DNA of 64,000 nt, from contig JANNWY010000193.1 in assembly GCA_031409335.1 (NCBI GenBank), positions 46,408 through 110,407 of the forward strand. The letters are read 5' to 3'. Position 1 is the first letter of the stretch, and the number at the start of each line of letters is the position of its first letter. The position numbers and the translations under genes were made by a program. Source of the stretch: Chthoniobacteraceae bacterium. Its GTDB lineage: Bacteria; Verrucomicrobiota; Verrucomicrobiia; Chthoniobacterales; Chthoniobacteraceae. Of this stretch, positions 818 to 17,711 are shown in pieces. Under the pieces are notes generated by a model. The model had not been told where the DNA came from, did not search any database, and saw only the letters and a list, made by a program, of their open reading frames with translations.

Positions 818-939
818 CCGGGTAGCACGCTCGTCCCGCCGAAACGAACTTTCATCACGCATCGCTGGTAAAACTGTGAACGAGTTCCGTGACGATGCGT
901 CAGGAAAGTCCGTCGAGGCGGGACGAGCGCGCTTCCCGG
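818..939. repeat. REP-like inverted repeat, family A (short variant)
   Basis: Arms 818-852 and 905-939 are imperfect reverse complements and match the arms at 34195-34359. Confidence 0.8.
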
Positions 940-3900
940 AGTTCCCGTTCGCGCAGCCATGCGAAAATGACCGGCGTCACAATGAGAATATGAAGGAGAC
1001 TTGAAACCATCCCGCCGATCACGGGCGCGGCGAGCGGCTTCATCACCTCCGAGCCGACGCGTGTGCTCCACATGATCGGGAGCAGGCTGGCGACGATCGT
1101 CGCCACGGTCATTACTTTTGGGCGAAGGCGAAGACGTGCGCCTTCCTTGATCGCGTCGAGTAAATCGGCGCGCGAAAAATTTTCGCCGCGCTCGCTGCGT
1201 TTGCGCGCGAGGGCTTCCTCGAGATACACGACCATTACCACTCCCGTCTGAATCGCCGTGCCGAAGAGCGCGATGTAGCCGAACCACACGGCGACGCTGA
1301 AATTGTAGCCGAGCAGGTATTGCAAGAACACGCCGCCGGTCAGCGCGAAGGGCACGGCGAGGATGACGTGCGCGGCTTCCTTCACGCTGCCATAGACGAG
1401 GTAGAGCAGCAGGAAAATGATCGCGAGCACGGCAGGCACGATGAGTTGCAGCGTGCGCTTGGCGCGGATTTGGTTTTCGTACTGGCCGCTCCATTCGATC
1501 GTCATGCCGTCGGGAAGTTTGACGTCGCGCGCGATTCGCTGGCGCGCTTCATCCACAAAGCCGCCGAGGTCGCGGCCCTGCACGTTCGCCTGCACGAAGA
1601 CCCGCAGCCGCCCGTTCTCGCTGGCGATTTCGCTCGGGCCGGTGTTGCGCGAAATCGAGGCAAGCTGGCCGAGCGGGATTTGTTTCCCCGCGGGCGTCGC
1701 CACGAGCACGTCACCGAGGCGTTCGATGTCGTCGCGCTCGTCGCGCGCGACCCGGACTTGGATGGGAAAACGCTGCCGTCCCTCAATGGTCGTCGTCACA
1801 TTTTTTCCGCCGAGTCCCGCTTCTACCACATCGAGAATCTGCTGCGCGCGCAGGCCGTAGCGCGCGGCGGATTCGCGGTTCACCGCGATTTCGAGATACG
1901 GCTTTCCCTGCACCCGTGAAGGCGCGACGCCGACCGCGCCGGGGATTTCGCGCACGATTTTTTCGATCTCGAACGCCTTCGCCTGCAACGCATCGAGATT
2001 CGCACCGAGCACCTTGATGCCGACCTGTGCGCGGATCCCGGTCGAGAGCATGAGGATGCGATTTTCGATCGGCTGGAGAAAGCCGGGCACGTAGCCGGGG
2101 ACTTGCGTGAGCTTTTGCGTCAGCTCGGCGATGAGCGCGCCCTTCGTCATGCCCGCGCGCCATTCGTGCTCCGGTTTGAGCATGATCGTCGTCTCGATCA
2201 TCTCGACCGGCGCGGGATCGGTGGGCGATTCCGCGCGTCCGAGTTTGCCCGCTGCGGAGAGCACTTCCGGCGTTTGGGAAATGGCGGTGTCCTGCCACGA
2301 CATGATGCGTTTCACCTCGGTGAGGCTGGTGCTCGGCAGCAGCACGGGCATAAAAAGCAGCGAGCCTTCGTTGAGCGGCGGCATGAATTCCCGGCCCATG
2401 CGTGGGATGAGCGCGAGCGCGCCGACGAGCATGAGCGCGGCGCAGGCGAGGACGGATTTGCGATGCGTGAGCGCCCAGTCGAGCGTGGGATTGTAAATCG
2501 CGAGCAGCCCGCGCATGACCCAGTTTTTTTCCTCGGAATGGAACGGGCCTTTGACCAGCAGCACGCAGAGCACGGGGACGATGGTGACCGCGAGCAGCGT
2601 GGAGCCGATCATCGCGAAGGTCTTCGTGAAGGCGAGGGGATGAAACAGTTTCCCTTCCTGGCCGGTGAGCGCGAACACTGGCACGAACGCGAGAATGATG
2701 ATCGCCATCGCGAAGAAGATCGGGCGGCCGACTTGCTTCGATGCGGCGAGGACCACATCGAATGTTTCACCACGGGTCAGCGCCGCGCCCTTTTTCCCCT
2801 CCGCCTCCTCGCAATGCCGGATCACATTTTCCGTCATCACGATCGCGGCATCGACGAGCACGCCAATGGCGATCGCGATGCCGCTCAGCGACATGATGTT
2901 CGACGTGATGCCGAACTGCCGCATGAGGATGAACGAGATGAGAATCGAGACCGGCAGCGGAAACGTGACGATGAGGATGCTGCGGAAATGGAACAGGAAA
3001 ACGATGTGCGCGAGCGTGACGAGGATGATCTCCTCGGTAAGCGCGTGCTTGAGCGTGGCAATGGTGCGGTCGATCAATTCGCTGCGGTCGTAGAACGATT
3101 TGATCGTGACACCCGGCGGCAGGCTCGGCGCGATTTGCGCGATTTTTTCCTTAATGCGAGCGATCACTTCGCGCGCGTTTTCACCGGTGCGCATCACCAC
3201 GATGCCACCGACGACTTCGCGCCCGTTCACATCCAGCGCGCCGCGGCGGAAGTCGCCGCCGATCTGCACGGTGGCGACATCGCGCAGGTAAATCGGCGTG
3301 CCTTCGCGCTCGGCGAGCACGGTCTTTTCGAGATCGGCGGTGGACTGAATGAGGCCGATCCCGCGCACCACGAATTCCATGCCGTTTTCCTCGATCACCT
3401 TGCCGCCGACGTTGAGGTTGCTCTGACCCACGGCTTCCATCACTTCCTGCAGCGACACTTTGGCCGCGCGCATTTTCATCGAAGAGACCTCAATCTGATA
3501 CTGCCGCACGAACCCCCCGACACTCGCGACCTCCGCGACGCCGGGCACCGCATTCAGTTGATAACGCACAAACCAATCCTGCACCGCGCGCAGTTCGCCG
3601 AGGTCGTGGCCCTGCTTCGCATCATCCACATCGAGGTAATACTGGAAGACCCATCCGAGCCCGGTCGCGTCCGGGCCGAGCTTCGCGGTGACGCCGGCGG
3701 GCAGGATGTCGCCGAGATAATTCAGTCGCTCGAGCACGCGCGTGCGGGCGAAGTAGTTGTCGATCTTGTCGTCGAAAATAATCGTGAGCAGCGAGAAGCC
3801 AAACATCGAATTCGCGCGCACCGTTTTCACTCCGGCGAGGCCCTGGAGATTTACGGAAAGCGGATACGTGATCTGATCCTCGACCTCCTGCGGACTGCGC

Positions 3901-4064
3901 CCCGCCCAGTCGGCGAAGACGATGACTTGGTTTTCGCTGAGGTCGGGGATGGCGTCGATCGGCGTGCGGCGCAGCTCGAAGATGCCGAGCGCAATGATGA
4001 AGAGCGTGGCGCACGCGACGAGGAAACGGTTTCGCAGCGACCACTCGATGAGGCGCGGGATCAT
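900..4064 (-). CDS. cusA: CusA/CzcA family heavy-metal efflux RND permease
   Basis: Starts [14 protein letters not shown] with an ATGA overlap to the upstream gene; [31 protein letters not shown] and RLRPKVMT motifs; about 1,054 aa. Confidence 0.93.
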
Positions 4065-5752
4065 GGCTTCACCTCGCCGCCGCATTCGAGCATTTCGCGG
4101 CCAAAGTACGGATTGCGGATGGGCGCGGAGAGTTGCATCCATGCGGCTTTGGCGGGCGCGCCGGGGAAGGAGTCGGCGGTCATCGGGCAGCGGTAGATTT
4201 TCACCGTGGCGAATGCCGGATCGCGCGCGCGCAACTGCGCGACCCACGGGACCAGCGCATCGCCGAGCGGCTGGAATGCCTTGCGCGCCATCGGCAGGTC
4301 GGGCGCTTCCCGCAGGTCGAGAGTGCTCGCGACTGCCGGCACTTCGTCGCCGAAAACGGCGGTGAGCCGCGCGCGATTCTCCGCCGCAGTCTTCGCGAGT
4401 TGATTGAAACCGGCGAGGTCATCCGCGGCGAGCCGTTGCGCCAGCGCGTCGGCGAAAACGAAAAATTCCCGCACGGCTTCGCGCTGCGTGTCGGTGAGAT
4501 CGGATGTCATTGTCCGCGCGGGCGCCACGGATTCCCCACCCCGATTGAGCTGCGCCTGCGCATCGATCAGCAGGTTGCCATTGGTCACGACGTTCTCGCC
4601 TTCCGCCAAGCCGCTCGCGACCTCGTAAAAGTCGTCACCCACACGCCCGAGCTTCACTTCGCGCGGTTCGTACACACCCTCCGCTTTCACCACATACACT
4701 AGCGGATTCGCGCCGGTAGCGAGGACCGCGGATCGTGGCACGGTCAGCGTTTCCGGCGTTTCGACGCGGATCACGCCGTTGGCGTAAACGCGATGCAGCA
4801 GCTCGTGACGATGCCTCGCGGGGTCGCCGACGTGCGGGTTGTCGATGACCACGCGGATGCGCGCGGTGCGCGTGTCCATCATCACGTTCGGATCGATGAA
4901 TTCGATCGGCGCGGTGTAGGTTTTTCCTGGCACGGTGGGCGTCGAAATCTCGACCGTCTGGCCGATCTTGATCCACGCGAGATCGCGCTCGTACACGTCA
5001 CCGACGAACCACATTTTCGCGAAGTCCGCGATCTCGAAGAGCACGTCGCCCTCCTTCACATACTGGCCTTCATAGACCTTGCGCTCGACGACGGTGCCCG
5101 ACTTGGGCGCGAGCAATTCGATGTTGTCGCCGGTTTGCTCGGGGAGCTTCTCGATCTGCGCGAGCGTGAGGCCCATGCGGCGCAGTTTTTGGCGGCTGCC
5201 AGCGAGGCCGGCTTCGCGTTCGGGTGAGGGCGGCTGCTTCAGCGCGAGCAGGTATTCCCCGCGGGCGACGATCAGTTCGCGGCTGAAAAAGGAGACGAGC
5301 GGCTGGCCCTCGGTCACTTCCGCGCCGACGGAAGGCACGAACAGTTTTTCGATGCGGCCCTCGACCGTGGCAGACAGTCGGCGATGCGCGGAATCGTCGT
5401 CGTCGATCTGTCCAGCGACGTGCAGCGAACGGCGCAACGGCTCGCGCTTCACGGGCGCGGTCGCGACGTGGAGCACGTTGATGCTTTGCGCGCTGAGCGT
5501 GACGAGATTTCCGGCAGCGGGCTCCGCCGCCGCACCTTCGTACACCGGCACGAGTTTCATGCCGCAGATGGTGCAGTCGCCCGGTTTGTCGGATTTTATC
5601 CACGGGTGCATCGGGCTTTGGTAAAATAGGACACGCCGCTCGGCAGAGGGCGTGGAATCAGGCTTTGCGGGCAGTGTGCGCGCGGCGATCCAGCCGGCGG
5701 TGGCGGCGGCGGCGACGAGGAGAATGGTGCGGATGGAGTTTGGAAAAGACAT
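4061..5752 (-). CDS. cusB: CusB-type RND periplasmic adaptor with N-terminal heavy-metal-binding domain and DUF3347-like C-terminus
   Basis: [24 protein letters not shown] metal-binding motif, MFP core, C-terminal YRCPM...[14 protein letters not shown]. Confidence 0.9.
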
Positions 5753-5844
5753 GGCATTGGAGAGTTGAAGTGGAGCCGCGTTCCGATGGAGCGCGGCATG
5801 TTTGTGTGCCCGGACGCGGGCACACCACGGGCGTCAAGCCCCTC

Positions 5845-6174
5845 TCAAATGAGCCGGATGCAGGTCACGTCCAGGCGAGGCTGGACGGGCAGACGCGCGC
5901 GCGTGCGCTGCTGCGTGGACGCTGGCGGAACGACGAATTTCGGCTGCGCACCGAGGCAGACGAGGACGGGGACGACGGCTTGTTTCAAGTCCACCGAGCC
6001 GGTCGCTGCTGGCGGTGTTTCATCGGTTGGGGCGTTTCCTTTCGCGCAGCAATCCGCGGAGGGATCGGCGCAGCAGTGGCCGCACTCCGTTTCCCCGCAA
6101 GCGGGCGCGCAGCAGACCGGGCCGGTGGCAAGACCGGAGCAGAGCAGAAGCAGCAGGAGCAGGCGGAGAAACAT
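5845..6174 (-). CDS. small Cys-rich exported hypothetical protein at the head of the cus operon
   Basis: Hydrophobic N-terminus followed by CCAPAC-ECGHCC-DCC; same strand as and directly upstream of cusB. Confidence 0.55.
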   Translation of the reverse strand: MFLRLLLLLLLCSGLATGPVCCAPACGETECGHCCADPSADCCAKGNAPTDETPPAATGSVDLKQAVVPVLVCLGAQPKFVVPPASTQQRTRARLPVQPRLDVTCIRLI

Positions 6175-6239
6175 CGGTGTAAAAGATTTCAGCAAAGACC
6201 AAGCTGGGTCAATGGGCGTTCAAAGGTGCTTTCGCGCTA

Positions 6240-6338
6240 AGCGCTCTCGGACTGCGGCGATTCCTTCGCCGCCTTTTTTCCGTTGCGCGGACGTTATCCC
6301 GAAAGCGGCAAAGGAATTGCCGCAGTCCAAGGGCGCTT
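6240..6338. repeat. REP-like inverted repeat, family B
   Basis: GGACTGCGGCGATTCCTTCGCCGC...GCGGCAAAGGAATTGCCGCAGTCC; near-identical element at 46302-46412. Confidence 0.8.
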
Positions 6339-6536
6339 AGCGCGGCTCCGTCTCGCGCGTCCACTCGGTCCGCTGTTTTAGGAGGTAAAGCATCTCACTG
6401 GCCATAGTCATCCACCCAGACTGCCGCGGGATCGCGACAACCGATGCGGCGGATATCGCGTTGCGGAAGGAAAATTGCAGCCGTTCGTAGTCGGCGGAAT
6501 TCGACTATCGCGGAGAACCGATTCCCAAAGACTAGG

Positions 6537-6586
6537 GATGGTGCGCGGTACAGGGTTCGAACCTGTGACCCCTACCGTGTCAAGGT
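6537..6586 (-). repeat. att site: duplicated 3' part of tRNA-Val(GAC)
   Basis: 50-bp exact match to 14931-14980. Confidence 0.97.
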
Positions 6587-6592
6587 GAGGGG

Positions 6593-7498
6593 TTACACTG
6601 TAGCCGCGTCTTCGTTGCCGTTTCGTTGCCGTTTTTCCCGCGCCCACTTCCGCTTCCGGGAGCGAATTGGCGGCTTCGATTCTGCCGATACGGCCTTCGC
6701 GCCGACGATCGCGGAAACACGGCCCTCGTTCTCAATCGGGATGTGAAAGCGAGTCCCGGCAACGTCCACTGTCAGCTCGCGCCTCCACACAACCGCCGAT
6801 GTGGCGAACCCGCGCGCTTGTTCCTCGCCCTGCTTGAGCGTGATGACACCGCAAAGGGGATTCCAAAGCCGATAATGCAATTGCGTGGCCGTGGCCGATT
6901 CATCGTCGCTCCATGCGGGATTGTCTTTCGCCGCAAACGCCGCATTGCCGCGCATCCCGGCCCGCAGCGCTCCCATCACAACGTCGGACGTTTTAGTTTG
7001 TGCCGTGGCATTGCGCAGTAGCGCCGCCGTCGTCTCCTCAATCCCGAACTCGGCGCGCATCTCCTCGATCCATTGCGAGAGGACGCACACGAACGCCCTC
7101 AGCTTCGCAGGAGTCTTTTTCGTTTCTGAGCTATTCTCTCGGGACGCCCTGAGCATGAAGATGATCGCATCGGAGGCGCGTTTCTCGATGTGCTCGAATT
7201 CCCCATCGCTGTATTCCATCGCCTGCCACGCCTCCCACGTCTCCGACGTGTAGGGCTCGCCATTAAGTGCAACTGGCACGCCATCGGGCTTGAGTAGTGA
7301 GGCCGGGTCAACGCCAGTAAATGCCGCGATGCGGTTTGCCAGCTCTGCCGACATCAGTGACAGATACCCTCTGCTTTCGATGCTTTGGACTGTAGGACAT
7401 GAGCATCCAACCAGAGCGGCGAACCCTTGCTGCGTTAGTCCCGTGGCCTTACGCAAGGCTTTGAAGGCTAGCTTTAGATGGGGATTGGTCACAGGCAT
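6593..7498 (-). CDS. XRE-family helix-turn-helix repressor with long C-terminal region
   Basis: N-terminal FKALRKATGLTQQGFAALVGCSCPTVQSIES is HTH_3-like; divergent from the xis-like gene. Confidence 0.8.
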   Translation of the reverse strand: MPVTNPHLKLAFKALRKATGLTQQGFAALVGCSCPTVQSIESRGYLSLMSAELANRIAAFTGVDPASLLKPDGVPVALNGEPYTSETWEAWQAMEYSDGEFEHIEKRASDAIIFMLRASRENSSETKKTPAKLRAFVCVLSQWIEEMRAEFGIEETTAALLRNATAQTKTSDVVMGALRAGMRGNAAFAAKDNPAWSDDESATATQLHYRLWNPLCGVITLKQGEEQARGFATSAVVWRRELTVDVAGTRFHIPIENEGRVSAIVGAKAVSAESKPPIRSRKRKWAREKRQRNGNEDAATV

Positions 7499-7499
7499 G

Positions 7500-7516
7500 A
7501 CTTGTATAATACAAGT
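7500..7516. promoter_or_regulatory. operator-like palindrome in the repressor/xis divergent promoter
   Basis: Perfect dyad ACTTGTAT-A-ATACAAGT containing TATAAT on + and TATTAT on -. Confidence 0.7.
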
Positions 7517-7579
7517 TTAGTTAGTCACCACAATAACATTCTCGTTGTGATTACTTACAATGCGCGCCCATTAGTCGTC

Positions 7580-7768
7580 ATGCCAACTAAACAATACAGC
7601 AACATCGAGCAGCTATCCGAGAAGACCGGCATAGCGAAACGCACTATTCGTTCCCTCTATCAGCAGCGCAAAATCAGCGGGATAAAAGCCGGGCACCGCA
7701 CCCTGCTCTTCGATGCGGAAAAGGTCTGCGCCGAACTCGCAAGGTTCGAGGTAAAGGCCGTCCAGTAA
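7580..7768 (+). CDS. excisionase/AlpA-like HTH protein
   Basis: 62 aa, SNIEQLSEKTGIAKRTIRSLYQQRKISGIKAGHRTLLFD is HTH_17-like; first gene of the rightward operon. Confidence 0.8.
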   Translation: MPTKQYSNIEQLSEKTGIAKRTIRSLYQQRKISGIKAGHRTLLFDAEKVCAELARFEVKAVQ

Positions 7769-7968
7769 TGCGCGCCATAATTAAACCCGTCATCCCAAAG
7801 ATTGCCCACGAGCGCGGATACGTGCCAGTAACCGTCCCTTACCGCCCAAATGAGCGGGACGCCCTACGCAGGGCATTGGAAGGCATGAAGGGCGTGCGTT
7901 ACCTCTGCGTCGAGTCAACCAAAGGCCGGGGAATCTCCATTTGGCGTTTAGCCAGTGAAGTGAAGTAA
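7768..7968 (+). CDS. hypothetical protein (satellite)
   Basis: TAATG stop/start coupling with the xis-like gene. Confidence 0.6.
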   Translation: MRAIIKPVIPKIAHERGYVPVTVPYRPNERDALRRALEGMKGVRYLCVESTKGRGISIWRLASEVK

Positions 7969-8014
7969 CCGCAGAACAGAAAGCCGCTTCGCATCTATCA
8001 CGGATTTTTAAGTC

Positions 8015-8851
8015 ATGAATTACACAAAACTTTTCGCATCCATCATCACGTCAACCATCTGGACGGAAGATGACACGACGCGAATCGTGTGGATCACAAT
8101 GCTCGCCAGCGCCAGTAAGGATGGGGAGGTAATGGCGAGCGTCCCGGGACTGGCACGGATAGCCGGGGTATCAATGCAAGCGTGCGAGGCCGCACTGAAT
8201 AAATTCCTATCGCCGGACCCACACTCAAGAACGAAAGACGATGAGGGTCGAAGGATCGAGGTAATTGACGGCGGTTGGCAACTGCTGAATCACAAGAAAT
8301 ACCGCGAGATGGCCAGCAAGGAGGAATCCAGAGAGGCGGAAGCGAATCGCAAAGCTCGCTACAGGGCGAAGCTAGCCAGAAACGGAAAGTCCGGGATGTC
8401 CCACAATGTCCCGGACATGTCACATGAAGTCCCAAAAAACCGGCACATAGCAGAAGAAGATACAGAAGAAAAAGCAGCAGCAGCAGCGATCGACCTTTTC
8501 TCCGATCCCGAAAGCCCCAGCTCGGAAAACGACTTCGTGCAATCATGGAACGCACTCCCAGAGCCGTTCGCCAAAATCCAAGAAATGACCGAAGATATGG
8601 GAACTAAACTCAAGGCGAGGATGGCAGATAGGTTCTGGCGTGAGAATTGGCGAACAGCCGTGAAACAAATCCCGCAAAGTCCGTTCATGCGAGGGGAGGG
8701 CGAAAATGGATGGGTTGCAAGCGCGGACTGGTTTCTTAAACCCGATTCCGTGGATAAAAGCATTGAGGGTAAATACCGCAACGGCGCAGGACGATCAAAA
8801 GCCCGCCCCAAGCCACTGCCAAGCGCAGCGGACGCCAGAAAGGGGCGGTAA
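8015..8851 (+). CDS. phage-type replication initiation protein
   Basis: N-terminal YTKLFASIITSTIW wHTH-like region, central low-complexity linker with DNA repeats, C-terminal FMRGEGENGWVASADWFLKP...IEGKY typical of phage replication proteins. Confidence 0.72.
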   Translation: MNYTKLFASIITSTIWTEDDTTRIVWITMLASASKDGEVMASVPGLARIAGVSMQACEAALNKFLSPDPHSRTKDDEGRRIEVIDGGWQLLNHKKYREMASKEESREAEANRKARYRAKLARNGKSGMSHNVPDMSHEVPKNRHIAEEDTEEKAAAAAIDLFSDPESPSSENDFVQSWNALPEPFAKIQEMTEDMGTKLKARMADRFWRENWRTAVKQIPQSPFMRGEGENGWVASADWFLKPDSVDKSIEGKYRNGAGRSKARPKPLPSAADARKGR

Positions 8852-9135
8852 TGAAAAGAGCCATGCCCCGACCCACTAAAAAGCAGCTTGCTGAGTTATT
8901 GGATGAGCCCACCCACGAAGGCGTCACGTTACGCCAGCGACTTGAGCAAACGGAAGCCATCCTGAACGCGACTGACTCACGCGGAAGGCTGTGCGTCACG
9001 CGCTCTCAAATCTCCACTTTGCTCATCGGCCTTCGATCCTACGCCGGGAGGCATCCACTGTCAGACGCGATGATTGCGAGGCTAAAAGCCACCAATGGCC
9101 TAGCAGCCAGTCACTTAGTTCAAAGAAGATACTGA
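8851..9135 (+). CDS. hypothetical protein (satellite)
   Basis: TAATG coupling to rep; 94 aa. Confidence 0.55.
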   Translation: MKRAMPRPTKKQLAELLDEPTHEGVTLRQRLEQTEAILNATDSRGRLCVTRSQISTLLIGLRSYAGRHPLSDAMIARLKATNGLAASHLVQRRY

Positions 9136-9219
9136 CATATATGTAAGCCGCTCCTGCCGTTACGGTTATTCTCCCGGCGGGAGAAATTCCATTCACTCAC
9201 GAACTCATCACCCACTACC

Positions 9220-9576
9220 ATGAAAAAAAGCAGACTCGATCAAATCGTCGGTCCCGAACACTTAACCGAAGACCAAGCGCGGGCGGTAGGTAATGCCGTC
9301 GTCCGCTTCTTCTATGCTGAATACGAAGCATTCGGACCACGCATCAAAGCCGCTGCCACCGCGCAAGATCGCGATGCGATGGCCGCTCTTCGCTTAGAGG
9401 CAAAGGGGAACACGGCTTACCTTTGCAACTGGAATGCCAGAACTAAAGCGAAGTCGGAAAAGCTGGAACTCCTCGAAAAGTATTGGGGCGACACCGCCGA
9501 TAGCTTGACCGAAGCACTTACGCGAGACTTACCACCAAAGGAAGATTCTGAGGGCGGGGAATGGAAGCAATACTAA
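9220..9576 (+). CDS. hypothetical protein (satellite)
   Basis: 118-aa ORF in operon orientation with an A/C-rich upstream region. Confidence 0.6.
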   Translation: MKKSRLDQIVGPEHLTEDQARAVGNAVVRFFYAEYEAFGPRIKAAATAQDRDAMAALRLEAKGNTAYLCNWNARTKAKSEKLELLEKYWGDTADSLTEALTRDLPPKEDSEGGEWKQY

Positions 9577-9606
9577 CTTGACAAGTTAAAAGCTCTGCCA
9601 TTTACT
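9574..9606 (+). promoter_or_regulatory. sigma70-type promoter of the capsid/terminase operon with overlapping palindrome
   Basis: TTGACA (9578-9583), 17-bp spacer, TTTACT (9601-9606); the -35 lies inside the perfect dyad TAACTTG-A-CAAGTTA (9574-9588). Confidence 0.7.
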
Positions 9607-9803
9607 CGCATTCAGACAGACGAACCTTCCGTGCCTTATGGGTGCCGTTGGTTTGAAAGTTCGGCAAGCCTCACGCTCGTTGCGCATTCGCGCTGCCAGC
9701 CGCGCCAAAGAGGCAGAAAAGTGCGGCGGCTCTCTCATCCCGGTAGCGGACTACCGGGCACCCTTTCTTGCTCCCGCAAATCAAGCTCCTACTGAGTAAA
9801 TTC

Positions 9804-11606
9804 ATGCCTATTCGCACCCTAAAGATACCAGCAACCCTCTACCGCTCGGCGACGATCGAGAGCAAAAAGGGGAAGCTCTCCATGAGCATTTCCAGTGATG
9901 CCCCCTGCCTTCGCGATGACTGGACCGGCGAAAGATATTGGGAAGTTTTAGACCATAGCCCCGGCGGATTCGCCGATACCCGCCTTCGCACTGGCTTGCC
10001 ACTCCTGTTTAATCATAACAGGGACCAACATCTAGGACGCGCGAAGGGTTTTCAATGTGACGGCCACAAAATAACTGTCACGGCCCACGTCTGGAATCGC
10101 AGTGCCTTCGCACAGGGAAAGAAGGCGGACATGGAGGCTGGGAGCCTCGTGGACACCTCCATTGGCTACACGATCTTGGACGAGGGAAAGCAAATCGGAA
10201 GGAAGGATGGACACCCAATCTATCGGTTCAAGTGGGAGCCGCATGAGCACAGCCTTGTAACCGTTCCCGCGGATAGCTCGGTCGGAGTAGGCAGAAGCCA
10301 CAATCCCGCCGAGTTCATCGAAATTTCAATTCAAGATAACCAAAACCAAAACCAAATAGATACCAACTATATGCCAGCACCTACAACACAAACCCGAGAG
10401 AGAATGAGTCACGAACAGCTTCTTGAGCATCAAAATAAGATGCGCCAAACGGTCGCCGGAATCTCGAATCCCCAGTGGCGGGAGCAAGCGTCGGGATTTA
10501 TAGACGAGGCAATTCTTAACCAGCAAACCTTCGGCGAGTTTATCGTGCGTTGTCGGGATAGCTTCAAGACCTCCAGCGTGGCGATCGACTGCGATACTTA
10601 CGGATCAAGGGACTTCTTTGAAGCCCGGAACGGCAGTCGGCGTTCAATCGGCGAGCAAATCGCGCGGCATCCCGATATGCTCCAGTTTAGCAAAGGCGGG
10701 AAGCGGGCGGTCGCGTTCGATTTGAAAAACGTCCGTGCGTTCAACGAACTCCGCCAGCGCTCCACAACTACCACGACAAACGCTGGCGTTGTCACTGAAC
10801 AAATGCCCGGCATTCAAGGGATGGCGTTTGAAACACTGACAGTCGCCGACTTGCTCATGCCGGGAGTGACTAGCGGCGGGGCTGTGTCGTTTGCGAGGGA
10901 GGACAGCTTCACAAGTGAAGCGACCACAGCGGGCGAAGCATCACTAGCCACTGAGCAGACGTTCTCTATCTCGCCAGACACGGCCCCGGTAAAGAAGGTC
11001 AGCGCGTGGACCAAGATAAGCGATGAGCTGTTGGCCGACAGCCCGGCCTGCGCGGATCAAATCGGAAACCGCTTAGGGTTTGCTGTGAACAAGGCTAGCG
11101 ACCTCCAACTGTTGTCAGGTGATGGCATGGGAACCAATATCAAGGGGATTCTCACAACCGCTGGCATCCAGACGGTTCACAAAGGAGCAGAGTCCGCGCT
11201 TGATACCATCAGGCTTGGGATTGGCGCTATTGATAGCAATTCCGATTACCGCGCAACCGGCCTTGTCATTCATCCAACGCAGTGGACAACGCTTTCTTTA
11301 ATCAAGGACACGACGGGCCGATATATCGTTGGACAGGTGTTAATGCCAAACGAGTTCGGGATCATTCTTCGCATTCCTACACTTTGGGGCCTGCCTGTCT
11401 CCGTGTCCAAATCAATGGCTACAACTTCGGTGCTGGTAGTCAGCCGCGATGCCGGGTCCGTATTCCGCAGGCAGGGGTTGAGCGTGGAAGCGAGTAACAG
11501 CAACGAGAACGACTTCCTCAAGGGCTTGATTACCATTCGCGCCACTGAGCGCCTAGCCCTTGCCATCTACAACGCAACCGGGTTCTGTGAAGTCACCGGC
11601 CTGTAG
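9804..11606 (+). CDS. fused HK97-family prohead protease + major capsid protein
   Basis: Protease motifs LLFNHN, DTSIGY and EHSLVTVPAD, then HK97 capsid motifs KKVSAWTKISDELLADS, QLLSGDG...KGIL, TLWGLPV and NDFLKGLITIRATERL. Confidence 0.92.
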   Translation: MPIRTLKIPATLYRSATIESKKGKLSMSISSDAPCLRDDWTGERYWEVLDHSPGGFADTRLRTGLPLLFNHNRDQHLGRAKGFQCDGHKITVTAHVWNRSAFAQGKKADMEAGSLVDTSIGYTILDEGKQIGRKDGHPIYRFKWEPHEHSLVTVPADSSVGVGRSHNPAEFIEISIQDNQNQNQIDTNYMPAPTTQTRERMSHEQLLEHQNKMRQTVAGISNPQWREQASGFIDEAILNQQTFGEFIVRCRDSFKTSSVAIDCDTYGSRDFFEARNGSRRSIGEQIARHPDMLQFSKGGKRAVAFDLKNVRAFNELRQRSTTTTTNAGVVTEQMPGIQGMAFETLTVADLLMPGVTSGGAVSFAREDSFTSEATTAGEASLATEQTFSISPDTAPVKKVSAWTKISDELLADSPACADQIGNRLGFAVNKASDLQLLSGDGMGTNIKGILTTAGIQTVHKGAESALDTIRLGIGAIDSNSDYRATGLVIHPTQWTTLSLIKDTTGRYIVGQVLMPNEFGIILRIPTLWGLPVSVSKSMATTSVLVVSRDAGSVFRRQGLSVEASNSNENDFLKGLITIRATERLALAIYNATGFCEVTGL

Positions 11607-11706
11607 CTTGTCCTAGGCTTTGCTCGCGCCGTTTCATCGCGAGCTTGCACCGACCGCTGGCGGTGGGGTTTACCAGCGGGCTCCCCTTCCTCGCGGATTA
11701 GGGAGC

Positions 11707-11754
11707 GGGTCCTTCCCAAAGGTGAGGGCATTAGCAGGTTCCTCGGGTGCCCTC
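11707..11754 (+). promoter_or_regulatory. putative cos packaging site (cosQ-like heptamer plus dyad)
   Basis: GGGTCCT (identical to lambda cosQ) at 11707-11713, then the dyad GAGGGCA-N17-TGCCCTC ending about 50 bp upstream of the terS-like gene. Confidence 0.55.
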
Positions 11755-11802
11755 TGTCGCCGGTTATCACACTTTCCATAGTGGCAACAGCACGTCTTTT
11801 CC

Positions 11803-12273
11803 ATGAGCCTCCTATCCATAAACCAGCTTTCCAGCCTCACCGGACACAGCCGCGAACACGTAAAACGCTCGCTGTCGGACCTGCCATTTACCGAGGGCGC
11901 GAAGGGTGCGCACCTATACGATGCAACCCGCGTCCTAACTCTCAGGCTTAACGCTCACGGCCAGCTACTTGCCACCGAGCAGGAAAGCAGACGCAGTTTG
12001 AACGAGGCTAAAAAGCGCGTCCTTGAGTTGCAGGAGCAGTCGCTTAGGAAAGAGCGAATTCCGCTCAGTGTAGTGCAGAGAATCAATTCCCGCGTCTTGG
12101 ATACAGTCGCCCACATATTAAAATCCCGGCGCGGTAAAGTTCTGGATGAGCACACCATGAAGGACCTATTCCACGAGCTATCCGCCGCCGGGGATGGGGT
12201 AGATGGCTTTGTGAATCCGCCCGCCTCCATGCCTCCCACTAAGCCAAAGAGTAAGCCACGCCGAAAGAAATGA
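11803..12273 (+). CDS. terminase small subunit (Nu1/DUF1441-like)
   Basis: N-terminal wHTH LSINQLSSLTGHSREHVKRSL...HLYD followed by the coiled coil RSLNEAKKRVLELQEQSLRKERIPLSVV; lies directly after the capsid gene. Confidence 0.7.
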   Translation: MSLLSINQLSSLTGHSREHVKRSLSDLPFTEGAKGAHLYDATRVLTLRLNAHGQLLATEQESRRSLNEAKKRVLELQEQSLRKERIPLSVVQRINSRVLDTVAHILKSRRGKVLDEHTMKDLFHELSAAGDGVDGFVNPPASMPPTKPKSKPRRKK

Positions 12274-12455
12274 GCCCGAAAGACGACCGCCGCTGCGAGC
12301 GCCTGCTCCTAAAGATGTTCGCGGAAGTCATCCGCGAAATCTTCAAAACGCCGATTCAGTGGGATTCCGAGCCATCCATTGCCAGCGCCGTTAAGCGCAG
12401 CGCACCGCCACGGCTCACGAAAGGCAAATCCAAGGGGATGGGTGCGCCCCGGTAG
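12270..12455 (+). CDS. small hypothetical protein coupled to terS
   Basis: ATGA overlap with terS; 61 aa. Confidence 0.4.
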   Translation: MSPKDDRRCERLLLKMFAEVIREIFKTPIQWDSEPSIASAVKRSAPPRLTKGKSKGMGAPR

Positions 12456-12530
12456 CAATCAAGGGCCGTGGCGGGCATCCTCGCGCAAAGCGATCATCTC
12501 AGTTCGCCCGTATTGGAGCCATGCCAGCCT

Positions 12531-12863
12531 TCACCTTGGCGGGCATTGGAAACATTCCATCACCTTGCGAAACAGCGGCAGCCTTCGCGCCGTCGAAACC
12601 ACTCCGCGCCGGGCACCGATGAACTCCCGGCGAATCACGTAGAGATGATCGCACCGAACCGCCGTTGCGTTGTCCAAACCGTCTGCTTTATCCAACACGA
12701 AATGGATCGCCTTCGGTTGGAAATTCGGGCGCACCGAGCGGCAGAAAAGCCCGTTCACTTCCGCAAAGTCCGCATTCTCAGCGCGGGCGGGATTCGAGAG
12801 AATCAGAACGGGGTGACTTCCTTCCTTCTCGAAAGGGTAGTCATAGATTTCCCATTGCCTCAC
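12531..12863 (-). CDS. PemK/MazF-like toxin
   Basis: VRQWEIYDYPF...HPVLILSN...GLDNATAVRCDHLYVI...RGVVS fits the PemK fold pattern; GTGA overlap with the upstream small ORF (alternative ATG at 12881). Confidence 0.7.
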   Translation of the reverse strand: MRQWEIYDYPFEKEGSHPVLILSNPARAENADFAEVNGLFCRSVRPNFQPKAIHFVLDKADGLDNATAVRCDHLYVIRREFIGARRGVVSTARRLPLFRKVMECFQCPPR

Positions 12864-13036
12864 CGAGCGTGCTGGCGGCATACCGCCTCACCGATGCGGT
12901 TCGCTTCCTCGATGTCCTCCGCGTCATACCGCAGCGGTGAATGAGTCGCGCCCGCTCCACGAAGCATCCGCACCGGAAGAGCGGGTTTCTTTCGCGCGAG
13001 CTTTTTGGGGGATAGTTTCGCAACGGTGGTTTTCAT
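12860..13036 (-). CDS. putative antitoxin
   Basis: 58 aa with a basic N-terminus and an acidic patch near the C-terminus; coupled to the ligase (TGATG) and the toxin (GTGA). Confidence 0.55.
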   Translation of the reverse strand: MKTTVAKLSPKKLARKKPALPVRMLRGAGATHSPLRYDAEDIEEANRIGEAVCRQHAR

Positions 13037-13632
13037 CACACGGGAACAGACCACAGGGCGTGCTGACGCGCAATCAAATCGAACTCGGCGAGATGCTGCG
13101 GCTTGAACTTCAAAAGTCCGTCCACACGTCCCGCCCGGTATGAGCGGCCCCGCCGATGGATCATCAAGCCCTCGCCTCCTTTCGACACAACACGCTCCAA
13201 CATCTGCGGGAGTGAATCCATCGACGGCAAAACTTCCATCGGCACCACTTCCGCGAATTCGCCTAGATCAAGCCGCATCATTGCCGCATGTCGCAACGCG
13301 AAATCTCCCGCCACAGTCGGCGCATCAAAGATCATCAAACGCAGTGAACGCCAGTTTCCGGCCTTGCTCGCGACCGCACGGGAGACTTCATCCCGCGCGC
13401 CACGGCCCGCCCACAGCTCGCAATCGAGAATTCGGCGGGGAAGCCCCTCGGTGAACCAATCAGGGGCATTCACGGCCTTGCCAGATCGCAGGAAAAGCCG
13501 CGTGCCAGTCCACCGAACGCGCCAGCCATCTAGCTTTTCCACGACGTAGGAGCCGGAAAGATCGCCGTCGTTTCGGTCGAAATCGAAACCGTGCATCAAC
13601 TTGTTAATGGACCTTAACATTTGTCCTGGCAT
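13036..13632 (-). CDS. ATP-dependent DNA ligase adenylation domain (LigE-like) lacking the OB domain
   Basis: Motif I EKLDG, RSG, motif III LDCEL, IIIa IFDAP, IV EGLMI and V LLKFKP, then a stop about 20 aa later. Confidence 0.8.
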   Translation of the reverse strand: MPGQMLRSINKLMHGFDFDRNDGDLSGSYVVEKLDGWRVRWTGTRLFLRSGKAVNAPDWFTEGLPRRILDCELWAGRGARDEVSRAVASKAGNWRSLRLMIFDAPTVAGDFALRHAAMMRLDLGEFAEVVPMEVLPSMDSLPQMLERVVSKGGEGLMIHRRGRSYRAGRVDGLLKFKPQHLAEFDLIARQHALWSVPV

Positions 13633-13646
13633 CGCTATTTACCGAG

Positions 13647-14789
13647 TCACGCGGCGCGGGAAATCGAGACAACCTTTCCGTCCCGCGCTGGCGCGATCTT
13701 CCAAAAAGCTGCCGCGTCTTTCGGGCGAACAAGTTCGCGATAATGACGGAAGACAATCGAAGGGCTGTTGCCCATCTCCAAAGCGAGCCGTGCCGTGTCT
13801 CCAATGACGGGCAGGCGATATGATCCAAAACTGTGACGCAGCGCGTTCTGTGGCCAGTTCTCGCGCATCCCGGCCCGGTCCCTGTCCGCCTCAAGTTTCT
13901 TCCGCGCTCCAATCGGGAGAACGGGGCCGGATGCCTTCGCGTGTGCCATCAGCCATTCCCGCAGGTTGTCGGAAATTGGAATCAGTCGGCGGCTTCCCGT
14001 CTTCGCCTTCGCGGCCTTCACTTCGATCAAGCCCGCTTCCAAATCGACTTCCGCCCAATCGAGCCTTTCGAGTTCTGCGGATCGTAGGCCGGCAAATGCA
14101 CCGATGGACCAATACGGCAGAGTTTCCGCGCTCGCCGATTCGAGAAGCCGCGCCGTCTGCGCGACCGTCAGAATCCCAATCTCGCCGGATCGCTCCTTTG
14201 CCCGCTCCACGTCCTCAATCGGATTGCGCTCGGCGTAACCCTGTCGCCGGGCAAAGCTGAAAAGCGTTCCGAGACGGCTGCGCGTCGTGTAGCGGGAAAC
14301 CGCTCCAACGGAGAGCCCGCGAAGCCAGTCATGAACTTCTTTCGCTGTGATGTCCGCCACCATGCGCTCGCCAAACGTCCGCGCGAACGCATCGAACTTT
14401 AGCCGGATGTCCCGCAGATAGTCCGCGCTCGCACCATCGGCCTTGCGAGTCGCCAGCACTTCCGCCGCAACGTCGGAAAACGAGCGGCTTCCCGTCACCC
14501 GTCGCAAGTGCGCCGCGAAAAACTCCGCCGCATCCAAAATCGTTTTGCCAAACGGTGCCACGATCGCATCGGCCTTTTTTGCCAGAACGCGCAACTCGGT
14601 TGGAAATTCCGCGCCCTCCGTTCCCTGATTGATCGTCTCAATCGTCTTTTGTTGAGCGAACGTCTCTGCCTCCTTTTTCGTTCCGAAAAACCGCCGGGCT
14701 CGTTTCCCGTCATCCTTGAAATTGACGACGAACTTGAGCAAGGGCCGGTTGGAATCGGCGTATGAGCGAATCTTGAATTGGGTTCTCAT
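13647..14789 (-). CDS. int: tyrosine recombinase / integrase
   Basis: AGLRSAEL (Arg), KAKTG (Lys), NALRHSF, MGNS and FRHY (Tyr); adjacent to the att/tRNA. Confidence 0.95.
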   Translation of the reverse strand: MRTQFKIRSYADSNRPLLKFVVNFKDDGKRARRFFGTKKEAETFAQQKTIETINQGTEGAEFPTELRVLAKKADAIVAPFGKTILDAAEFFAAHLRRVTGSRSFSDVAAEVLATRKADGASADYLRDIRLKFDAFARTFGERMVADITAKEVHDWLRGLSVGAVSRYTTRSRLGTLFSFARRQGYAERNPIEDVERAKERSGEIGILTVAQTARLLESASAETLPYWSIGAFAGLRSAELERLDWAEVDLEAGLIEVKAAKAKTGSRRLIPISDNLREWLMAHAKASGPVLPIGARKKLEADRDRAGMRENWPQNALRHSFGSYRLPVIGDTARLALEMGNSPSIVFRHYRELVRPKDAAAFWKIAPARDGKVVSISRAA

Positions 14790-14932
14790 GTGGCGACCGT
14801 TGCCATCTGTTGCCATTTTTTCAACGAAAAACGCGCAAAAATGAGGATTTACCCGTCAGCATGAGTCACAGCGTTTTTTACCTCCAATCGCCCGCGCCCC
14901 CTGTATTTATGCGGTTTCCAGAGTAATTGAGA

Positions 14933-15007
14933 TGGTGCGCGGTACAGGGTTCGAACCTGTGACCCCTACCGTGTCAAGGTAATGCTCTACCACTGAGCTA
15001 ACCGCGC
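14933..15007 (-). tRNA. tRNA-Val(GAC)
   Basis: GCGCGGTTAGCTCAGTGGTAGAGCATTACCTTGACACGGTAGGGGTCACAGGTTCGAACCCTGTACCGCGCACCA folds as a cloverleaf with anticodon GAC and an encoded CCA. Confidence 0.97.
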
Positions 15008-15218
15008 GTTTTAACGAGCGGAACGAATAGGCAACGCGGAGGCGGCTGGCAAGGGGAGTTTTTGACGCTGCTCCGAATTTTGCCGCGATCGAATTTTGTG
15101 GCGATCCGAACGGAGAGTGCGTTGCAGGTTGCGTTGGCTGAAAGTGCGATTTAATCGTGGAAATGCGTTTGCGTCTCCCCGCTTCCATCCGGATTCCGCC
15201 TGTTCCGTTTTTGTTGTT

Positions 15219-17711
15219 TTGAAAAAGTTTATCTTCGTTTTCATCGTGGTCGGTTTCGCTGCGGCGCGCGCGTCAAATGTGATGCTGGTGCCGCTCGGGG
15301 CGGACTGGCGTTTTTTCGCGACGGGCGAGGCGGCGGCGGCGAATTGGGCGGTGTCGGGATTCGATGATTCGGGGTGGACGAATGGGATCGCGAAAATCGG
15401 AATCGGTCACGCCGATCACGCGACCAGACTGCCGCCGCCGATCGTGGCACCGCGAATGACCGTGTATTTTCGCCGTCAATTCACGCTGCCATCGAGTCCG
15501 TCGGAATATACGGCGCTGCTCGCGCGGATGGTCTGCGATGCAGGCGCGGTGATTTATCTCAATGGCGTGGAAGCGGGGCGCGTCGGGATGCCGGCGGGGG
15601 CGGTCTCGGCCGCAACGCCAGCGAGCGCCGAGCCTTTGTTTCCGCAAGAAGGTTCGTTGCGCACGGTGCCGATCGCTGGCGCGGCGCTTGCCGCTGGCAC
15701 GAACACGATCGCGGTCGAATTGCACGCTTCCTCGAGTTTCGATTTCGATCTCGATTTTGACATGGAACTGATCGCCAGCCGCAACGTGACGCCCGCGTTC
15801 GTGGTGCGCGGACCTTACCTTCAAAATGGCACGCCGACTGCCGTGACCGTGCGCTGGCGGACCGATGTGCCGACGTCCACTCGAGTCCGCGCCGGGGTTC
15901 TCACCGCTGATCTCAATCTCTCCGCATCGGACACCACGCCGACCATCGAACACGAGGTGCGACTCACCGGGCTTCAGCCCGACACGCGCTATTTTTATGC
16001 GATCGACGATGGCGCGGAGCTGATCGAGGGGCCCGGCGCGCAGTGGCAATTCCGCACGCCGCCCGCCGTGGCGACAGTGAAGCCAGTGCGCGTATGGGTG
16101 CTGGGCGATTGCGGCACGGGGCGGTCGGGGACTGGACGGGCCGAGGCTGCCCGCGATGGCTACCTCCATTCGCCGCAATACCAGCCGCCGGATGTGTGGT
16201 TGATGCTGGGCGACAATGCCTACGGAATCGGTGCCGATGATGAATATCAAAACGCGGTCTTCGACACCTATCGCTCGACGCTGCGCAGCTCCATCCTCTG
16301 GTCCACTTTGGGCAACCATGAAACTTACAGCGCGGGCATTCCCTATTTCTCGATGTTCACCTTTCCGACGGATGGTGAAGCAGGCGGCGTGGCTTCGGGC
16401 ACCGAGTATTATTACTCCTTCGACTACGCGAATATCCACTTCGTGTGTCTCGACTCGATGGAATCCGCACGCACCGCGCCCTCCGCGATGCTCTCGTGGC
16501 TGGAGGCGGATCTGGCGTCCACGTCCCAGCAGTGGATCGTCGCGTTCTGGCATCATCCGCCTTATTCGAAAGGAACCCACGACTCCGATTTCGAAATCGA
16601 ACTGATCGAGATGCGGGAAAATGCGCTGCCGATTCTGGAGGAATACGGCGTCGATCTCGTGCTGTGCGGGCACAGCCATGTGTATGAACGTTCCCATCTC
16701 CTAGACGGACACTACGGCTACTCGTGGAACCTCAATCCGGCATCCATCAAGGACGCTGGCAGCGGACGCGCGGACGAGCCCGGCGGCGCGTATGGCAAGG
16801 ATCCCGGACCGCACAATGGCACGGTGTATTGCGTCGCCGGTTCCGCGGGGCAGCCAGGCGGCGGCTCGCTCGATCATCCGGTGATGTTTCTGTCGTTGGG
16901 CGAACTTGGTTCGTTGATTTTTGATGTGAATGGCGACCGTCTCGACGCGAAGTTTATCAATCATCAAGGCGTGATTCGGGACTACTTCACGCTGTCAAAG
17001 GCGCCGCTGGTGACGCTCTCCGCGCCACAGCCATCGCTGCGGGAAGGCATCGGCGGCCCGGCGCAGGTCCGCCTTTTTCGCGATCGCGAAATGGATCGCG
17101 CCATCGCGGTGCAGCTTTCGCTCGCGGGCTCGGCGACGGCGGGCAGCGACTACGGCGCGCCGCTGCTGCCAGCGGTGATTCCCGCCGGCCAGCAGACGCT
17201 CGATTTGTTCCTCGCCGCATTTACCGACACGATCGCGGAAGGCTCCGAGACCATTTCCGTCACGCTGGAGGAAGACAGCGCCTACCGGCTGCCGAAGGTC
17301 GTTCGCAGTATCACGCTGTCCCTTGCAGACCGTCCGGTCGATGCGTGGCGTTTTGAAAAATTTGGCATTCAGGCGAATGATCCCGGCATCGCGGGAGATG
17401 CGGCGGATGCCGACGCGGACGGCCAAACCAACTTTTCCGAGTATCTTGCCGGCACGGAACCACGCGACGGTGCGAGCCAGTTTGCAGCGGCGGTGGCGCG
17501 AAATGCCGCCGGTCAATTCGTGGTTCGTTTCCTGGCGCGAAAAGGCCGGGGCTACACCGTGCTTCACCGCGCGGCATTCACCGCGGGCGACTGGCAGATT
17601 CTCGCGACGATTCCCCCGCCTGCGGCGAATCAGATCATCGAAATCCCAGACCCTTCCGCGGCGATTTCACCGCAGCGTTTTTACAAAGTGACGACGTCCG
17701 GTCCGCCGTGA
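15219..17711 (+). CDS. secreted purple-acid-phosphatase-like metallophosphoesterase with FN3-like and Calx-beta-like domains
   Basis: Signal peptide from a probable TTG start; GDCG, GDNAY, GNHE, HHPPY and GHSH motifs; C-terminal DADADGQTNFSEYLAGTEP repeat. Confidence 0.85.
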   Translation: MKKFIFVFIVVGFAAARASNVMLVPLGADWRFFATGEAAAANWAVSGFDDSGWTNGIAKIGIGHADHATRLPPPIVAPRMTVYFRRQFTLPSSPSEYTALLARMVCDAGAVIYLNGVEAGRVGMPAGAVSAATPASAEPLFPQEGSLRTVPIAGAALAAGTNTIAVELHASSSFDFDLDFDMELIASRNVTPAFVVRGPYLQNGTPTAVTVRWRTDVPTSTRVRAGVLTADLNLSASDTTPTIEHEVRLTGLQPDTRYFYAIDDGAELIEGPGAQWQFRTPPAVATVKPVRVWVLGDCGTGRSGTGRAEAARDGYLHSPQYQPPDVWLMLGDNAYGIGADDEYQNAVFDTYRSTLRSSILWSTLGNHETYSAGIPYFSMFTFPTDGEAGGVASGTEYYYSFDYANIHFVCLDSMESARTAPSAMLSWLEADLASTSQQWIVAFWHHPPYSKGTHDSDFEIELIEMRENALPILEEYGVDLVLCGHSHVYERSHLLDGHYGYSWNLNPASIKDAGSGRADEPGGAYGKDPGPHNGTVYCVAGSAGQPGGGSLDHPVMFLSLGELGSLIFDVNGDRLDAKFINHQGVIRDYFTLSKAPLVTLSAPQPSLREGIGGPAQVRLFRDREMDRAIAVQLSLAGSATAGSDYGAPLLPAVIPAGQQTLDLFLAAFTDTIAEGSETISVTLEEDSAYRLPKVVRSITLSLADRPVDAWRFEKFGIQANDPGIAGDAADADADGQTNFSEYLAGTEPRDGASQFAAAVARNAAGQFVVRFLARKGRGYTVLHRAAFTAGDWQILATIPPPAANQIIEIPDPSAAISPQRFYKVTTSGPP

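Follow-up and report, generated by a model that had tools for sequence, protein, structure and literature searches.

The question raised by this locus is how a small integrated element which carries a capsid gene and a gene for the small terminase subunit (TerS), and no portal, large terminase subunit (TerL) or tail genes, might be packaged and transmitted. The element, 8.4 kb in size, lies at a tRNA-Val(GAC) gene in a 64,000-nt stretch of DNA (here the window) from a Chthoniobacteraceae bacterium (assembly GCA_031409335.1, contig JANNWY010000193.1, positions 46,408–110,407). It is read here as an intact satellite of the phage-inducible chromosomal island (PICI) type, residing in a Chthoniobacterales host and parasitising cos phages of ~40–43 kb whose terminase is of GpA type and whose portal is of lambda type, and to this reading we give a probability of roughly 0.7. 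That the element is a satellite of some kind is very likely.

The element is bounded by exact 50-bp direct repeats with a spacing of 8,394 bp, the exact identity extending no further at either side, and the right copy forms the 3' part of an intact tRNA-Val(GAC) gene (Table 1). Its GC content is 56.3% against 62.0% in the genome, and its 13 open reading frames (ORFs) give a coding density of 90%. From left to right, an XRE repressor gene on the minus strand is followed by a plus-strand block of a Xis-like gene, a 66-aa ORF, a replication initiator, a 94-aa ORF, a 118-aa protein, the protease-capsid fusion, the cos site, TerS and a 61-aa ORF. The minus-strand block, read from the tRNA inwards, includes the integrase, a ligase domain, a putative antitoxin and a MazF-like toxin. 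None of the 15 ORFs scanned in the element region had a family match to portal, TerL or tail proteins. The original prediction of a complete 8.4-kb element in tRNA-Val(GAC), with perfect 50-bp repeats and lacking portal, TerL and tail, thus stands, and the profile searches agree with its gene set of integrase, XRE/xis switch, initiator, protease-capsid and TerS, the Xis-like protein falling below the cut-off. In the host genome (97.98% complete), PF05876, PF03354, PF04860 and PF05136 together with purpose-built TerL and portal profiles gave no match, and the capsid of this element was the sole capsid detected. In three of three congeneric loci the flanks of tRNA-Val(GAC), ~1–1.5 kb at each side, contained no homologues of the element genes.

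Packaging signal and candidate helper phages

The cos site contains a cosQ-like heptamer followed after 23 nt by GGTTCC at 11737. In the fetched lambda record 23 nt separate the identical heptamer from the genome end, a spacing found also in EcCICFT073; the element shows this lambda-type arrangement of heptamer and left end upstream of its TerS gene. The window and the whole genome each contain the two-part motif a single time, and 100 shuffles never produced it, which bears out the cos-like site of the original prediction. In 3.68 Mb of fetched loci it occurred in the window and four other distinct contigs, always upstream of TerS. A cosQ-type heptamer was present within 400 nt upstream of TerS in 37 of 102 distinct TerS loci, and the GGTTCC core upstream of TerS also in five related elements described below (L210, L309, L095, L216 and L297).

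The predicted cut at 11736/11737 matches the contig ends of two phages of ~40–42 kb with GpA terminases. Phage contig G736 (41,863 bp) ends with the heptamer and 26 nt, in GCA, and starts with GGTTCC, while in G737 (39,542 bp) the heptamer and 23 nt are followed by a 10-nt repeat starting with GGTTCC and present at both contig ends, which is what filling in a cohesive end would produce. GGTTCC is the start of six distinct viral contigs; the fit of G740 to the cos register is less clean. The strict cos pattern gave two matches in the viral contigs, both near phage head genes. A loose pattern matched 19 of 401 genomes and was rejected as being at chance level, since its reversed control was at least as frequent; the match in G474 (L297) was phage-related and the other 17 were left aside.

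In the TerS tree the protein of the element clustered with seven TerS proteins of GpA phages (support 97/94), that of G736 belonging to the same clade, and it aligned from end to end with its closest phage counterparts (126–157 aa). The phage TerS genes of this clade precede a GpA TerL gene, and GpA together with PF05136 was present in all ten candidate phage loci scanned. The phages of this group (L009–L038, G736–G740 and G1025–G1029) are 36–43 kb in size and have a GpA terminase, a lambda-type portal and a protease-capsid fusion; several share the GGTTCC left end, an integrase was found in three of the five tested, and they are probable Verrucomicrobiota phages. TerS kinship and the cos site both point to a lambda-like (GpA) helper as the source of TerL, portal and tail, a need already proposed in the original prediction. 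In structural comparison the TerS model matched the RppC-TerS entry 6hn7 with Z 6.6 (rmsd 3.0, 53 residues), tied with Xis and BldC, and a Foldseek search gave no match at E ≤ 0.001. A single-sequence search returned only TerS itself among 48 candidates, and comparing the TerS alignment with PDB sequences brought up no meaningful match.

Packaging by satellite TerS and cos with the TerL and portal of the helper is the probable mechanism. The XRE protein would keep the element silent until helper infection, Int and Xis would then excise the 8,394-bp circle, and the O-like initiator, with host or helper DnaB, would produce concatemers. The satellite TerS, either alone or paired with helper TerS in the manner of Rpp, would bring the helper TerL to the satellite cos; the DNA would be cleaved at 11736/11737 and driven through the portal of the helper, and neck and tail would also come from the helper.

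The protease-capsid fusion and related portal-less elements

Of 401 genomes of the order, 12 had a match to a profile built from 17 fusions, as had 7 of the 151 genomes of the family, the present genome being counted in each case; a second profile matched 8 of 355 genomes in a sister family. The fusion neighbourhoods were of two types. Full prophages (L002, L098, L313, L314) have the order cos–TerS–GpA TerL–portal–fusion–tail, while five elements of the same order (Chthoniobacterales) have a capsid gene and no portal. Among these, L210 has 46-bp repeats 9,152 bp apart at tRNA-Arg and carries integrase, XRE, Xis, initiator, TerS and fusion. L309, an 8.7-kb contig with its ends unseen, carries integrase, Xis, initiator, TerS, fusion and a toxin of toxin-antitoxin (TA) type. 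L211 has 39-bp repeats 10,220 bp apart at tRNA-Pro, with a primase and a ClpP-capsid, TerS not being found; L095 and L216 are partial contigs. A sixth locus, L297 (G474:C19, ~1287–4223) at tRNA-Gly, is very small, with an initiator, the same cos motif and TerS and no capsid, and is possibly a minimal satellite of the same helpers. No match to portal, TerL or tail was obtained among 114 ORFs from these six loci. The fusion-profile matches L212, L215, L218 and L311 were remnants or ambiguous. Two side observations concern the same loci: in L210 (11313–12785) and L216 (3708–5342) the capsid is followed by an ORF of 490–544 aa, the beginning of which is similar, as judged by eye, to tape-measure-like genes in L098 and L002, with no PHROG match; and L111 (43–9222), an island in a metagenome-assembled genome of Proteobacteria, has integrase, protease-capsid fusion, cosQ site and TerS in the order of the element, without portal or TerL.

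With five portal-less relatives in the order, two of them with their own att repeats, the element is best placed in a family, and the one-off deletion of a full prophage, which the original prediction had named as its refutation, does not fit the related elements found. That the element is merely what a large internal deletion has left of a full prophage, now dead, is very unlikely. It would agree with a protease and TerS nearest to those of full phages, with a phage-like initiator and with contig data in which no activity was seen. However, the order capsid–cos–TerS is that of E. coli PICIs and unlike the phage order cos–TerS–TerL–portal–capsid, the capsid clusters with a satellite and not with phages, pseudogene debris was not seen, and independent elements of the same design lie at other tRNAs. 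The DNA common to the candidate phages and the element is limited to patches of at most 421 bp with 64–74% identity. Because the modules differ in kinship and only such short patches are shared, the element is taken as a mosaic satellite and not as a recent deletion of a sampled phage.

The fusion is one unbroken 600-aa frame. Its capsid domain (PF05065, E 1e-38) is HK97-like both by sequence (E 1e-40) and by fold, and His71 and Ser119 of the protease are invariant in the alignment. Ala382, Gly574 and Thr581 occupy the positions of K169, N356 and E363 of HK97, the last of which we take to be the catalytic residue of the cross-link. The K/N/E triad is kept in 18 of 18 other HK97-like relatives, this capsid alone of the 19 aligned lacking it. 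The triad is missing also in all eight phages of a distant capsid clade, which includes four of the seven TerS-related phages. The residues of the covalent chainmail, in which the HK97 cross-link is described as joining K169 and N356 (PMC5701804), were thus not found in the capsid of the element. Their loss fits concerted loss after a helper switch and relaxed selection alike, and it would match a helper with a non-cross-linking capsid.

Duplicate loci were removed ahead of tree building. The careful capsid tree (28 rows) joined the element with L210 and seven context-less proteins, P0002–P0007 and P0011 (92/99), and a quick tree (51 rows) gave 99 in the Shimodaira–Hasegawa-like approximate likelihood ratio test (SH-aLRT); a separate distant clade (100/100) contained the capsids from eight phages with GpA, of which four are TerS-related. 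The proteins P0002–P0017 have no DNA context, and their short contigs are non-diagnostic since the phage-type P0009 also lies on one. The protease was nested among phage fusions as sister to P0009 (99/96), apart from the proteases of the capsid relatives, and a swap of the protease was borderline in the approximately unbiased (AU) test (p-AU 0.0497). A viral-contig scan with the single capsid protein gave no match, and a metagenome scan with the capsid gave mostly distant phages among the matches listed. A family 3 encapsulin was rejected, NF041188 scoring 34.6 bits against a cut-off of 180, with protease, cos and TerS adjoining the capsid.

The role of the fusion is the least certain step. 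That the self-cleaving protease-capsid co-assembles with the helper capsid, as a Ccm-like modifier or poison of the head, is the likeliest of the roles considered, though suggested with hesitation. Less likely still is a half-way state towards the capsid-forming PICIs (cf-PICIs), in which the fusion alone would build a small head (triangulation number T=3 or T=4) and only portal, TerL, neck and tail would be stolen. A protease, a helical linker and a full HK97 shell joined in one chain would speak for it, mixed shells are harder to imagine when the capsid is far from those of the TerS-related phages, and the capsid of EcCIEDL933 is likewise described as lacking cross-links (bioRxiv 10.1101/2025.02.11.637232). 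On the other hand, Ccm of SaPIbov5 forms no capsids alone according to the account in PMC8569155, the cf-PICIs as described bring their own portal, TerL and connectors, which this element is without, and the same kind of fusion in full phages means that a fusion is no sign of autonomy. The structure model of the whole fusion, with a mean predicted local distance difference test (pLDDT) score of 53.8, is too poor for estimating capsid size or T number.

A wider scenario is at present unlikely: a Verrucomicrobiota lineage of PICIs would keep pace with its helpers through the exchange of protease and TerS modules with GpA cos phages, and the present member would have moved to non-cross-linking helpers and shed its chainmail chemistry, its polyprotein building or reshaping a small head, free of covalent links, around a portal stolen from the helper. 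If true, the element would stand between the PICIs that modify capsids and the cf-PICIs, and would offer a natural test of the purpose of chainmail.

Several observations weigh against the element being an intact PICI-type satellite of the helpers named above. The best TerS identity among the phages is only 40%, so the actual helper was not sampled, and the hosts of the candidate phage contigs are not settled by a single-stranded DNA-binding protein (SSB) 67% identical to that of the present host. The predicted cohesive end is symmetrically flanked at 11 nt, compared with 10 nt in G737. A gpA-type TerL prophage, which the original prediction had proposed to look for, was absent from this genome assembly in the GpA, TerL and portal searches, and no other resident helper prophage was found by them. 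The nearest protease, P0009, sits in a fusion keeping the cross-link triad, which leaves TerS as the one ground for a match to non-cross-linking helpers. The activity data consist of assembled contigs (four runs of one study, X1 and X2 among them, two of the four being possibly the source), and integrated and excised forms are indistinguishable in them because the contigs break inside the att repeats. The depth of the element was 10.5 against 7.4 and 9.6 of the flanking contigs in run X1 and ~1:1 in X2, and a joint crossing att was absent among the 15 of 28 joints listed, data which are unable to tell the forms apart. Finally, the capsid is changed at 6 of 19 otherwise invariant columns, its relatives at 0–3, and in L210 and L095 the capsid gene is broken, both of which fit decay; the capsid gene of EcCICFT073 is described as dispensable for interference (PMC6092414).

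These last points would favour an active satellite in which the capsid gene is drifting or dispensable and concatemers of about five copies are packaged by TerS and cos in full-size helper heads, in the way EcCICFT073 is packaged by lambda. L297, with cos and TerS and no capsid, would agree with it, and five of seven candidate helper contigs are 4.99–5.15 times the length of the satellite, a weak indication since most small elements fit some multiple. Drift is, however, at odds with the unbroken frame, the invariant protease residues and the retained E366 and R423, which correspond to E153 and R210 of HK97. Moreover, four of the six changed columns are at the cross-link site (residues 382, 383, 574 and 581), and the chance of all three named cross-link residues being among the six was ~0.02, as computed post hoc. 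We regard this alternative as rather unlikely, though less so than autonomous head building.

Remaining genes and surroundings of the element

The features of the element are listed in Table 1.

Table 1. Features of the element and its insertion site, in window coordinates.
Feature	Position	Strand	Family match or remark
att core, distal copy (3' part of tRNA-Val)	6537..6586	.	exact 50-bp repeat
XRE-family repressor, 301 aa	6593..7498	-	PF13560 E 1e-6, over cut-off
Xis/AlpA-like helix-turn-helix (HTH)	7580..7768	+	divergent from XRE; TIGR01764 E 0.0018, below cut-off
66-aa ORF, coupled to xis	7768..7968	+	no family match
Phage O/DnaD-type replication initiator	8015..8851	+	phrog_10469 E 4e-22; phrog_345 (O-like) E 6e-13
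94-aa ORF, coupled to initiator	8851..9135	+	Atlas best score 0.82, lead only
Conserved 118-aa helical protein	9220..9576	+	4 homologues (118–153 aa), 31–37% identity
S78 protease, scaffold-like linker and HK97-fold capsid, one 600-aa frame	9804..11606	+	Peptidase_S78, Phage_capsid
cos site	11707..11750	+	cosQ-like heptamer 11707–11713, 23 nt, predicted cut 11736/11737, predicted 10–11-nt cohesive end
Nu1/DUF1441-like small terminase, 156 aa	11803..12273	+	phrog_141 E 1.6e-5; DUF1441 E 1e-4, below cut-off
61-aa ORF overlapping TerS stop	12270..12455	+	no family match
PemK/MazF-like toxin	12531..12881	-	PF02452 E 8e-4, below cut-off
Putative antitoxin, 64 aa	12860..13054	-	by position only (overlaps toxin start); no family match
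ATP-dependent ligase, adenylation domain only	13036..13632	-	phrog_114 E 5e-21; KxDG motif intact, no OB domain
Tyrosine integrase	13647..14816	-	PF00589, PF22022
att core inside tRNA	14931..14980	.	exact 50-bp repeat
Intact tRNA-Val(GAC)	14933..15007	-	

In the integrase, R245, K272, R327, H328 and Y359 are invariant in five of five aligned sequences. The XRE repressor is 30% identical to that of L210; judging from the layout, its gene would point the same way as the integrase gene across attP only after excision of the circle. An integration-dependent truncation of the repressor was considered and rejected, as its stop codon lies inside the element. The initiator gene contains four 7-mer units 10–11 bp apart at ~8399–8436, which may be candidate iterons; the signal is weak, since 3 of 25 codon shuffles also reached four. 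No ORF of the element matched a primase profile, the O/DnaD-like initiator being in its place. The profile of the 118-aa protein matched L210 (E 2.9e-5), where the gene lies upstream of the packaging module, and L095 (E 0.035). Promoter and terminator scans of the element gave a signal at or below shuffle level, and PADLOC gave no defence match except a weak HTH.

As to cargo, the TA pair of the original prediction was supported in part: the toxin, 43.5% identical to a host copy on C214, has a PemK/MazF-like match, though below the cut-off, while the antitoxin is placed by position. The pair probably stabilises the island. The ligase adenylation domain and the loss of the capsid cross-link residues are additions to that prediction. 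A 61%-identical homologue of 189 aa stops at the same place as the ligase domain, and the Atlas clusters of 178–214 aa (score 0.96–0.97) are mostly viral, because of which the protein looks like a member of a natural OB-less family. The full-length ligase of the host, on C209, is 41% identical to the domain.

Just outside the left att lies a 43-nt inverted repeat (88%) at 6233–6344, probably a host repeat. By eye, the left flank (900–6195) holds heavy-metal efflux-like genes of the resistance-nodulation-division (RND) type and the right flank (15096–17711) a metallophosphoesterase-like gene, which adjoins also the empty tRNA-Val site of G705 (73.5%). The same genome has a second island, L298 (G000:C316, 10037–19617), with a related integrase (36%), a tRNA-Thr at the far end and primase- and helicase-like ORFs (by eye), without capsid or TerS. 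Another related integrase lies at a transfer-messenger RNA (tmRNA) gene in L299 (G000:C293, 9107–16233), close to a relaxase-like ORF (by eye), and a broken one near tRNA-Lys in L300 (G000:C145, 5784–7431).

Comparison with known satellites

The view of the original prediction that the architecture is unusual was not supported. As defined for SatelliteFinder, a PICI has an integrase, a regulator, a primase-replicase, a capsid and TerS, must be free of portal and tail genes, and has a median size of 9.5 kb; a type B variant without a recognised primase is also described (PMC10085698). The element has the integrase, regulator, capsid and small terminase of this definition (de Sousa 2023) and no tail, holin, portal or head-tail genes, in 8,394 bp compared with ~9.5 kb, and it has the specific att site with flanking repeats of Fillol-Salom 2018. 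The regulator of a PICI (an AlpA, MerR or Stl homologue) is represented by the divergent XRE and the Xis/MerR-like HTH, the latter below the cut-off. The integrase is not next to this pair as in PICIs, the two lying at opposite ends of the integrated element; in the relatives L210 and L309 they are adjacent.

The closest design is that of an island of E. coli Ecol_224 at cspD-clpS (NZ_CP018948.1, L340) together with the SatelliteFinder type A/B PICIs as described (PMC10085698), which share the size of ~8–11 kb, the integrase, regulator and replication gene. The Ecol_224 island also has the same order of ClpP-capsid fusion, cosQ-type site, DUF1441/TerS and small ORF, and no portal, TerL or tail; its DUF1441 protein is 25% identical to the TerS of the element over 80 aa (E 2.6e-5). 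The element differs from it in having an O/DnaD-type initiator instead of a primase, XRE/Xis instead of AlpA-Icd, an S78 instead of a ClpP protease, the regulator at the far end from the integrase, TA and ligase cargo, and a host of another phylum. Since EcCI224 is listed at frmR-thiM (Table S1 of PMC6092414), the strain may carry a second island, the one at cspD-clpS. A design of this kind was therefore known before; the host group, the initiator, the S78 protease, the regulator position, the full-length TerS, the lost cross-link residues and the OB-less ligase differ.

EcCICFT073 (PMC6092414, PMC9026076) shares, as described, the cosQ, 23 nt and cohesive end upstream of a winged-HTH packaging gene and the lambda-like GpA helper, while its capsid is a 351-aa protein with a decoration protein and no fusion. 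Rpp (RppA/RppC), a winged-HTH protein of the DUF1441 type that forms a heterodimer with helper TerS and is without the C-terminal portion binding TerL, is reported as 30–40 aa shorter than helper TerS, whereas the TerS of the element is not shorter than its phage relatives. SaPIbov5 (PMC8569155) is likewise a cos-type satellite with an HK97-like capsid homologue, Ccm, and no portal; it differs in its Gram-positive host, in having no protease identified in that account, and in that the function of Ccm was demonstrated there and is only proposed here. The cf-PICIs (EcCIEDL933; gene set in L341) also have their own capsid and prohead protease, and the shell of EcCIEDL933 is described as lacking cross-links, but they encode portal, TerL, HNH and head-tail proteins, none of which, the own portal, TerL and connectors included, was found in the element.

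Among other small integrative satellites, the virion-encapsidated integrative mobile elements (VEIMEs; PMC9618062), some of them in Verrucomicrobia, have no major capsid gene as described and occur as concatemers in virions, whereas the element carries a capsid gene. The PICI-like tycheposons (bioRxiv 10.1101/2020.12.28.424599) are reported with capsid or TerS, not both, and with no cargo. No description of capsid-encoding satellites in Verrucomicrobiota was found in the literature searched, which excluded subscription journals. The main text of PMC10085698 has no mention of 'Verrucomicrob', though its supplement may list such hosts, and the text of the Logan paper names P4 only as a satellite type. 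The shared packaging signal, coinciding with phage contig ends, names candidate helpers, and the single-gene fusion, with relatives that keep the triad and one member without it, lends itself to study by expression and microscopy, for which the uncultured host is not needed. Capsid-encoding PICIs, described in PMC10085698 mostly from Proteobacteria, Firmicutes and Mycobacterium, would with this element be extended to the Chthoniobacterales.

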